DNA of 64,000 nucleotides, taken from assembly GCF_044324785.1 (NCBI RefSeq), contig NZ_CP172127.1. The stretch is one strand, 5' to 3'. Positions 60,558 through 60,877 of this stretch are shown piece by piece (the first letter of the stretch is position 1; each line of letters starts with the position of its first letter). Source of the DNA: Escherichia coli (lineage in GTDB: Bacteria; Pseudomonadota; Gammaproteobacteria; Enterobacterales; Enterobacteriaceae). The notes below the pieces were generated by a model. That model had not been told where the DNA came from and searched no databases. It saw nothing but the letters and a program-made list of their open reading frames with translations. The translations under genes and the position numbers were made by a program.

Positions 60558-60877
60558 CTTAATTATGTAAGGAGTATTTGATCATGTATAAGCAATGGAA
60601 AACAGCTTTAGGTAATAAGGAATATCTCAATTATTGAATATTTAGTGCGAATTATTTAGTACAAAAAAGCAGCGTTGCGTGATCTTTCCCTGCCCTTTAT
60701 TCATAAACTCATGGATATGGTGATCAACGGTGGTCTGATGCAGGCGCAGAGCCTGAGTAATCATGACTGAATTTCAGCCTTCAGAAGCCAGAAGAATGGC
60801 TTTAATACAATCGCAGCCCCGCTTTTCACAACATTATGCTTATAATATGAAAAATATCTTGCCTTGCATCTTTGTGC

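Follow-up and report, generated by a model that had tools for sequence, protein, structure and literature searches.

Relics of an H-repeat, an IS630-family transposase gene and a group II intron at the edge of an Escherichia coli Rhs locus

H-rpt elements of the ISAs1 family (ISEc1-5), of which H-rptB (yhhI) of Escherichia coli K-12 is an example, are described targets of group II introns: E.c.I2 and E.c.I9 home into 'Rhs IS (= ISEc1-5)' (Leclercq & Cordaux 2012, PMC3522654). The same survey, which had a detection threshold of 100 bp, listed E.c.I9 fragments of 193 and 159 bp in Rhs regions and gave coordinates for a fragment in strain EC4115 (NC_011353: 1965283-1965475; PMC3522654). In such truncated copies, E.c.I9-tr1/tr2 (159-193 bp, 97-98% identity), only the intron 5' end is kept, and a complete H-rpt follows directly. 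The third relevant system is the IS630 family, intact members of which include the ISEc40-family transposases and the 341-aa protein WP_040118421, and fragments of which are annotated as pseudogenes by PGAP.

Here we compare these systems with positions 60560-60877 of a 64,000-nucleotide stretch of an E. coli chromosome (the window). This 318-bp segment is very probably dead debris of three nested mobile elements, an H-rpt, an IS630-family element and a group II intron, with no working part. Each of its bases is assignable, by homology, to H-rpt, IS630 or E.c.I9-like sequence, and the three elements share one orientation, all being read on the minus strand. A BLAST search found no further IS630, second H-rpt or other intron piece anywhere in the 64-kb window. 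The finding is an ordinary one, as RefSeq annotation already includes the IS630 pseudogene, and both H-rpt elements and E.c.I9 fragments have been published from Rhs regions; only a 67-nt intron relic and a solitary 15-nt H-rpt end are unannotated in RefSeq. Its importance is correspondingly small: all bases of the stretch are assigned, and the boundaries of the H-repeat remnant and of the sel1 ORF had been slightly misjudged.

The segment lies at the distal end of the rhsB-side locus of E. coli, beside yhhJ-rbbA. Towards the end of the window, rbbA (56101-58836) and yhhJ (58752-59960), both on the plus strand, are followed by a truncated H-repeat ORF, the segment 60560-60877 and a sel1-repeat gene on the minus strand (60878-61357), presumed to be an Rhs immunity gene. 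The block upstream of sel1 (61371-63999) holds an orphan Rhs C-terminal tip (61371-62336, minus strand), then a HEAT-repeat gene resembling yibA (62378-63235) and, from 63241 onward, the C-terminal part of a full Rhs core protein. A core-end segment of ~130 aa is almost identical in the tip and in this C-terminal part, and the layout is typical of orphan cassettes. The segment thus sits beside orphan Rhs tips and immunity genes, at the array edge where a sequence-only reading had placed it. That reading also put the segment between the H-repeat remnant and sel1, which is right in outline only: the first 133 bp belong to the H-rpt, and the relic at the right end extends into sel1, over the final 26 bp of its ORF. 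On the other side of the H-rpt, a palindromic, REP-like sequence directly follows the yhhJ stop, and window positions 59900-60040 give a weak Rfam match to the Listeria sRNA rli42 (22.8 bits against a gathering score of 80; E = 0.021), which is probably chance or a REP element.

The nearest public genome is that of E. coli N3, with 100% identity over 60560-60877. The arrangement of H-rpt, IS630 fragment and sel1 occurs in ~255 (254-256) of 5426 complete E. coli genomes and adjoins yhhJ in all three genomes opened. A larger query of 601 bp is found in 254 genomes, and the 318-bp query is unbroken in 176, leaving ~78 in which the 318-bp match is split. In strain 405 (L006 2233-3000) the split is a 768-bp IS1 inside the IS630 stump, flanked by a 9-bp duplication that corresponds to window 60706-60714, and IS1 insertion probably accounts for most of the ~78 split matches. 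The site, as strain 405 illustrates, still gathers insertion sequences.

The H-rpt itself is a defective, H-rptB-like member of the ISAs1 family (60115-60692, minus strand), assigned by its homology to K-12 H-rptB. Its right inverted repeat (IRR) starts at 60115 and reads CAGGGCAAGATTACG, and its left inverted repeat (IRL) ends at 60692 and reads CAGGGAAAGATCACG on the minus strand; the two are identical at 13 of 15 positions and have the CAGGG start of ISAs1 termini. The ORF-H start codon lies at 60548, preceded by a 144-nt leader (60549-60692). The first 133 bp of the segment (60560-60692, minus strand) are therefore non-coding H-rpt 5' leader and terminal inverted repeat. A query of this leader and IRL (positions 1-133/137) returned 26,397 matches in 5359 genomes at ~91% identity, ~5 per genome, always at the upstream end of H-rpt copies, and it also aligns to the K-12 and RhsE copies. 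One match, in strain NWU_1, that seemed to extend past the H-rpt end was set aside, as it lies in a different T6SS/Rhs context.

Compared with K-12 H-rptB (the yhhI element), the window copy is alike in its CAGGG... termini, leader, ORF-H N-terminus and yhhJ-side junction, with 94% identity over 60162-60698 and 97% over 60100-60161. It differs in a 713-bp internal deletion at 60161/60162, which removes K-12 positions 538-1250, in a nonsense codon, and in having an IS630 stump as its neighbour instead of yrhC. Pfam DDE_Tnp_1_assoc scores 118 bits in the window H-rpt, and a Pfam search found no DDE_Tnp_1 there, against 104.5 bits for K-12 YhhI; the DDE domain is gone because the 713-bp deletion removed it. 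The deletion appears to be common to strains N3 and 746, both of which align ungapped across 60161/60162. The nonsense codon, TAG at ORF-H codon 20 (60489-60491), is found only in this strain and is TGG in N3 and 746. No target-site duplication was seen on reading the flanks of the window H-rpt, which are yhhJ-side DNA on the left and IS630 on the right, and PGAP annotates the copy as an ISAs1 pseudogene.

Next to the H-rpt lies a 45-codon stump of an IS630-family (ISEc40-like) transposase gene (60693-~60827, minus strand), covering residues ~22-67 with the N-terminal helix-turn-helix. It translates as EKRGCDCIKAILLASEG, a stop and then NSVMITQALRLHQTTVDHHIHEFMNKG; the stop is an in-frame TGA in place of Trp40 (60774-60776) and is common to all three copies examined. 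By BLASTP, 38 of 48 residues are identical to the Citrobacter plasmid transposase WP_040118421 (E = 7e-26) and 34 of 43 to an E. coli IS630-like element ISEc40 family transposase, WP_001468493 (E = 7e-23). The reverse search, tblastn of the intact transposase against the whole window, gave E = 7e-18 and found residues 22-69 only. The helix-turn-helix is recognized by Pfam HTH_29 (E = 2.8e-6; 27.8 bits against a cut-off of 28.1), and NCBIfam NF033545 gives 18 bits (E = 0.0016) on the ~45 residues of the stump alone, its cut-off being 100 bits; the intact homolog WP_040118421 scores 253.9 bits with the same model. On this homology, descent of the stump from a member of the IS630 family is secure.

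Relative to the intact ISEc40-family proteins and WP_040118421, with which it has 79% amino-acid identity over the helix-turn-helix region, the stump lacks the first ~21 codons with the start codon, the 274 downstream codons including the DDE domain, and both element ends. Neither terminal inverted repeats nor a TA duplication of IS630 were found at the window stump, where both ends are gone, and no clear terminal inverted repeats were found in intact IS630 relatives. The closest DNA relative (92% identity), a longer pseudogene in MP1/EC93-type strains (E. coli MP1 and the EC93 plasmid), is itself frameshifted; the MP1 homolog scores 41.3 bits with HTH_29 and 60.6 bits with HTH_33. Decay of the stump is evident in two non-synonymous changes among the three SNPs that separate the window from strain 746, and in five amino-acid changes in ~43 codons relative to MP1. 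Independent annotation by PGAP also places an IS630-family pseudogene at the equivalent of 60684-60812, noting an internal stop and missing N- and C-terminus, for example AXA56_RS06120 in E. coli N3 and CNQ56_RS01635 in strain 746; these calls agree with the window stump in bases, strand and internal stop.

The third piece is a group II intron relic, corresponding to nt 1-67 of E.c.I9 (60822-60888, minus strand; 79-83% identity), whose 5' exon, the homing site, is a solitary 15-nt H-rpt IRL core at 60889-60903 (minus strand) that reads TAGGGAAAGATCATC. In RhsE-type loci, the relic matches 56-81 bp (83-84% identity) of a site that has no annotation and precedes ydcC, the H-rpt gene there. Against the reference E.c.I9 of strain ATCC 8739, for which name and coordinates were taken from Table S3 of PMC3522654, 64 of 81 positions of the 5' exon plus nt 1-67 are identical (79%; E = 1.2e-13 against the window), and the identity to the E.c.I9 fragment of RhsE-type loci is 82.7% (E = 8e-14 against 28 Gb). 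Our match in EC4115 (1965268-1965428) overlaps the published fragment there. Among the matches listed in a distant search, nothing lay closer to the relic than E.c.I9-type fragments, and with 67 nt at 79-83% identity it could stem from an unsampled relative of E.c.I9, or conceivably from E.c.I2, rather than from E.c.I9 itself.

The homing site agrees with this assignment. In ATCC 8739 the full-length E.c.I9 begins GTGTGCCGTAGGCAC and is flanked by CAGGGGAAGATCACG before and AGAAGTACAC... after, which places it after nt 15 of the H-rpt end; the window relic, preceded by TAGGGAAAGATCATC, is in the sense orientation and has the same layout as ATCC 8739 and the longer copies L008 and L009. The two H-rpt ends are also linked by a direct repeat of 25 nt (60672-60696 and 60883-60907), which is 80% identical and includes an exact core of 12 nt, and the solitary IRL would be all that remains of an older H-rpt copy. 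The relic resembles the E.c.I9-tr copies (PMC3522654) in homing site, in orientation and in keeping only the intron 5' end. It differs from them in being shorter, below the 100-bp threshold of the survey, and more diverged, in the mutation of its canonical GTGTG start to CAATG, and in being followed by the IS630 stump instead of a complete H-rpt. The ribozyme domains and the reverse-transcriptase ORF are absent. Rfam RF01999 (group II intron D1-D4) scores 63.5 and 92.9 bits on the longer copies in L008 and L009, and the Rfam group II models had no match in the window at E up to 10, the model starting downstream of the 67 nt that are kept. In strain N96 a full intron with ltrA and domain V occupies the equivalent place.

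The fragments in other genomes form a recurrent module: IRL nt 1-15, E.c.I9 nt 1-143/146, and a complete H-rpt from IRL nt 1. Of 5426 E. coli genomes, 2285 carry it, and it is found at two or more Rhs loci, for example at L008 2880-3056 and L009 2700-3045, and is tandemly doubled in N96. Deletion within a single intron-bearing H-rpt cannot rebuild the second IRL of the module. E.c.I9 nt ~153-172 (CAGGGGGAACGATCAGACG) resembles the IRL, and possible origins of the module are a microhomology crossover or a longer H-rpt variant.

How the pieces came together is suggested by their junctions. At 60692/60693 the IS630 homology stops exactly at nt 1 of the H-rpt terminus: an intact IS630 gene reads AAAGGG-AAGTTAAAG, and the window reads AAAGGG-CAGGGAAAG. 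The other junction, between IS630 stump and intron relic, is a ~10-bp sequence (60822-60831), TTGTGAAAAG on the minus strand, that resembles both intron TTGTGAAGAG and IS630 TCGTAACAAG. The BLAST alignments of both parents end or begin at 60822-60832, and the sequence looks like a microhomology-mediated deletion junction. On the yhhJ side, K-12 MG1655 (L010 1388-1740, compared with window 60100-60700) has the identical yhhJ/H-rpt IRR junction, but on its other side K-12 H-rptB interrupts the yibA-like pseudogene yrhC, not an IS630 stump. The present H-rpt would thus be a recombinant, because its K-12 junction matches on the yhhJ side and differs on the Rhs side, which suggests that H-rpt homology brought in the sel1/orphan-tip block.

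What we observe directly is the identity and extent of each piece, the exact H-rpt/IS630 junction, the internal stop that the copies share, and how the arrangement is distributed among genomes; the order of events, including the recombination step, is what we infer. In this order, an H-rpt of the ISAs1 family would first have inserted at the extreme 3' end of sel1, and an E.c.I9-like group II intron would then have retrohomed after nt 15 of its left end, the usual site of this intron; an older, intron-invaded H-rpt is proposed because the outer IRL and the intron relic are present. An IS630-family (ISEc40-like) element may then have come beside or inside the intron, and a microhomology-mediated deletion would have joined intron nt ~67 to transposase codon ~22. 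Because the IRL/IS630 junction is clean, we place a second H-rpt as inserting into the IS630 transposase gene, precisely after codon 67 and with IRL nt 1 as its terminus. The remainder would have been lost, most simply through recombination of this second H-rpt with the resident H-rptB beside yhhJ, after which the surviving H-rpt would have lost its internal 713 bp and, in this strain, gained the TAG. No genome was found with an intermediate, such as an H-rpt in a full-length IS630 or an IS630 in a full-length E.c.I9. H-rpt copies seem to act as a fixed anchor while the neighbouring Rhs tip/immunity block is exchanged, and the insertion stack illustrates how, where an Rhs array ends distally, they provide both landing pads and anchors for recombination.

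A different history of the outer end, in which 60822-60903 is the end of a longer H-rpt variant, with IRL and intron 5' piece as one unit that was later split by IS630, is very improbable. It draws on the recurrence of the module of IRL, E.c.I9 nt 1-146 and H-rpt in 2285 of 5426 genomes, at two or more Rhs loci and in doubled form in N96. However, a junction exactly at IRL nt 1 predicts insertion of H-rpt into IS630, not of IS630 into a composite, and the IS630 stump lacks both of its own ends. The relic (79-83%) is also much more diverged than the H-rpt (94%), and indeed far more so than the pieces on either side of it; among the matches listed in the distant search, none joined a window-type relic directly to an H-rpt IRL without IS630.

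As far as we know, H-rpt elements are regarded as immobile in E. coli. There is some chance, though a small one, that the H-rpt/IS630 junction is a fossil of true H-rpt transposition in E. coli or, relatedly, that the outer module is a longer H-rpt variant or a microhomology hotspot. If either of these related readings is true, it could aid the shuffling of Rhs toxin/immunity cassettes between loci.

So, does any of this DNA still work? No function is expected for 60560-60877. Promoter-like sites number 3, against 6.3 expected from shuffles. A scan of the stretch found one terminator-like hairpin, on the plus strand inside the H-rpt leader, and neither a minus-strand terminator nor a convincing promoter. 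It is very hard to believe that the 40-aa minus-strand ORF at 60642-60764, which encodes MITQALRLHQTTVDHHIHEFMNKGQGKITQRCFFVLNNSH, has been co-opted as a small DNA-binding peptide, or that the region is a regulatory 3' UTR or terminator of sel1. The ORF does have an ATG start and is uninterrupted in each of the three copies examined, and a hairpin in the relic (TGCC-GTA-GGCA) overlaps the sel1 stop codon. Yet the ORF begins in the middle of the helix-turn-helix, as residues that precede the TGA are needed to cover positions 2-40 of Pfam HTH_29, and the H-rpt terminus encodes its last ~14 residues. Non-synonymous changes make up two of the three SNPs, the scan gave no convincing promoter and no minus-strand terminator, and strain 405, with probably ~78 further genomes, retains the locus although an IS1 lies within the region.

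The sequence-only reading had drawn attention to open frames on both strands, and both are present where it described them: besides the 40-aa ORF, a 31-aa frame on the plus strand (60675-60770) encodes MRDLSLPFIHKLMDMVINGGLMQAQSLSNHD. In 5000 first-order Markov simulations of the 318-bp stretch at 37% GC, 61% of the simulated sequences contained an ORF of 40 aa or more (P = 0.61), the corresponding value for 31 aa or more was P = 0.88, and the longest stop-free run, 43 codons, was reached in 87%. The frame lengths are those of chance, and therefore homology must decide whether the frames are protein-like. By homology, the minus-strand frame is that of the transposase gene in decay. On the plus strand, the frame falls entirely opposite IS630 homology and the H-rpt IRL, has no homology of its own, and is an antisense shadow of the transposase stump rather than a gene remnant. 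The suggestion that the frames were coding remnants rather than random DNA thus holds for the minus strand on the strength of homology, fails for the plus strand, an antisense artefact, and gains nothing from the lengths. Its companion, that a gene had decayed here, for example an older fragment of an immunity gene or transposase, was right about a transposase, was wrong about an immunity gene, and applies to only ~134 of the 318 bp. The intact protein-level homolog that had been envisaged does exist: IS630-family transposases that are intact, with 341 aa, match at residues 22-69 (79% identity). The rest of the segment, H-rpt leader and terminus plus group II intron relic, had not been foreseen.

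The two remaining alternatives have almost no claim to belief. Descent of the fragment from an Rhs immunity or toxin-tip gene, as the remnant of an orphan cassette rather than of a transposase, would suit a position where an array of orphan Rhs tips and immunity genes ends, but its significant protein matches are only to IS630-family transposases and helix-turn-helix domains, which refutes an immunity or toxin-tip identity for 60693-60827, and the longer pseudogene and the intact genes lie outside Rhs loci in other genomes. That the frames are chance ORFs in random intergenic DNA, with no decayed gene at all, would accord with lengths fully explained by simulation and promoter-like sites below those of shuffles, but the minus-strand frame has strong IS630 homology in protein and DNA and all the remaining bases are homologous to H-rpt or E.c.I9.

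The insertions have also left a mark on sel1. The gene does not itself belong to the debris, but the solitary IRL and the opening bases of the intron relic supply its last nine codons (LGKDHPMP) and stop, at 60878-60903. Distant sel1 homologs (47-58% identity) end ~8 residues earlier, in ...LKRAGG or ...LKEQKKY. The 3' end of sel1 appears to have been replaced by mobile-element insertion with the ORF kept, and the relic and solitary H-rpt end would explain the odd C-terminal tail of the immunity protein, a point of minor value for annotation. When window 60878-61357 is compared with strain 746 (L002), sel1 departs from the common allele at 21 of 480 positions (4.4%), with 91% amino-acid identity. 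The neighbouring dead DNA varies far less, with differences at 3 of 129 positions in the IS630 stump, at 6 of 578 in the H-rpt and at none in the intron relic and second IRL. The divergence of sel1 could reflect diversifying selection or a recombinant immunity allele.
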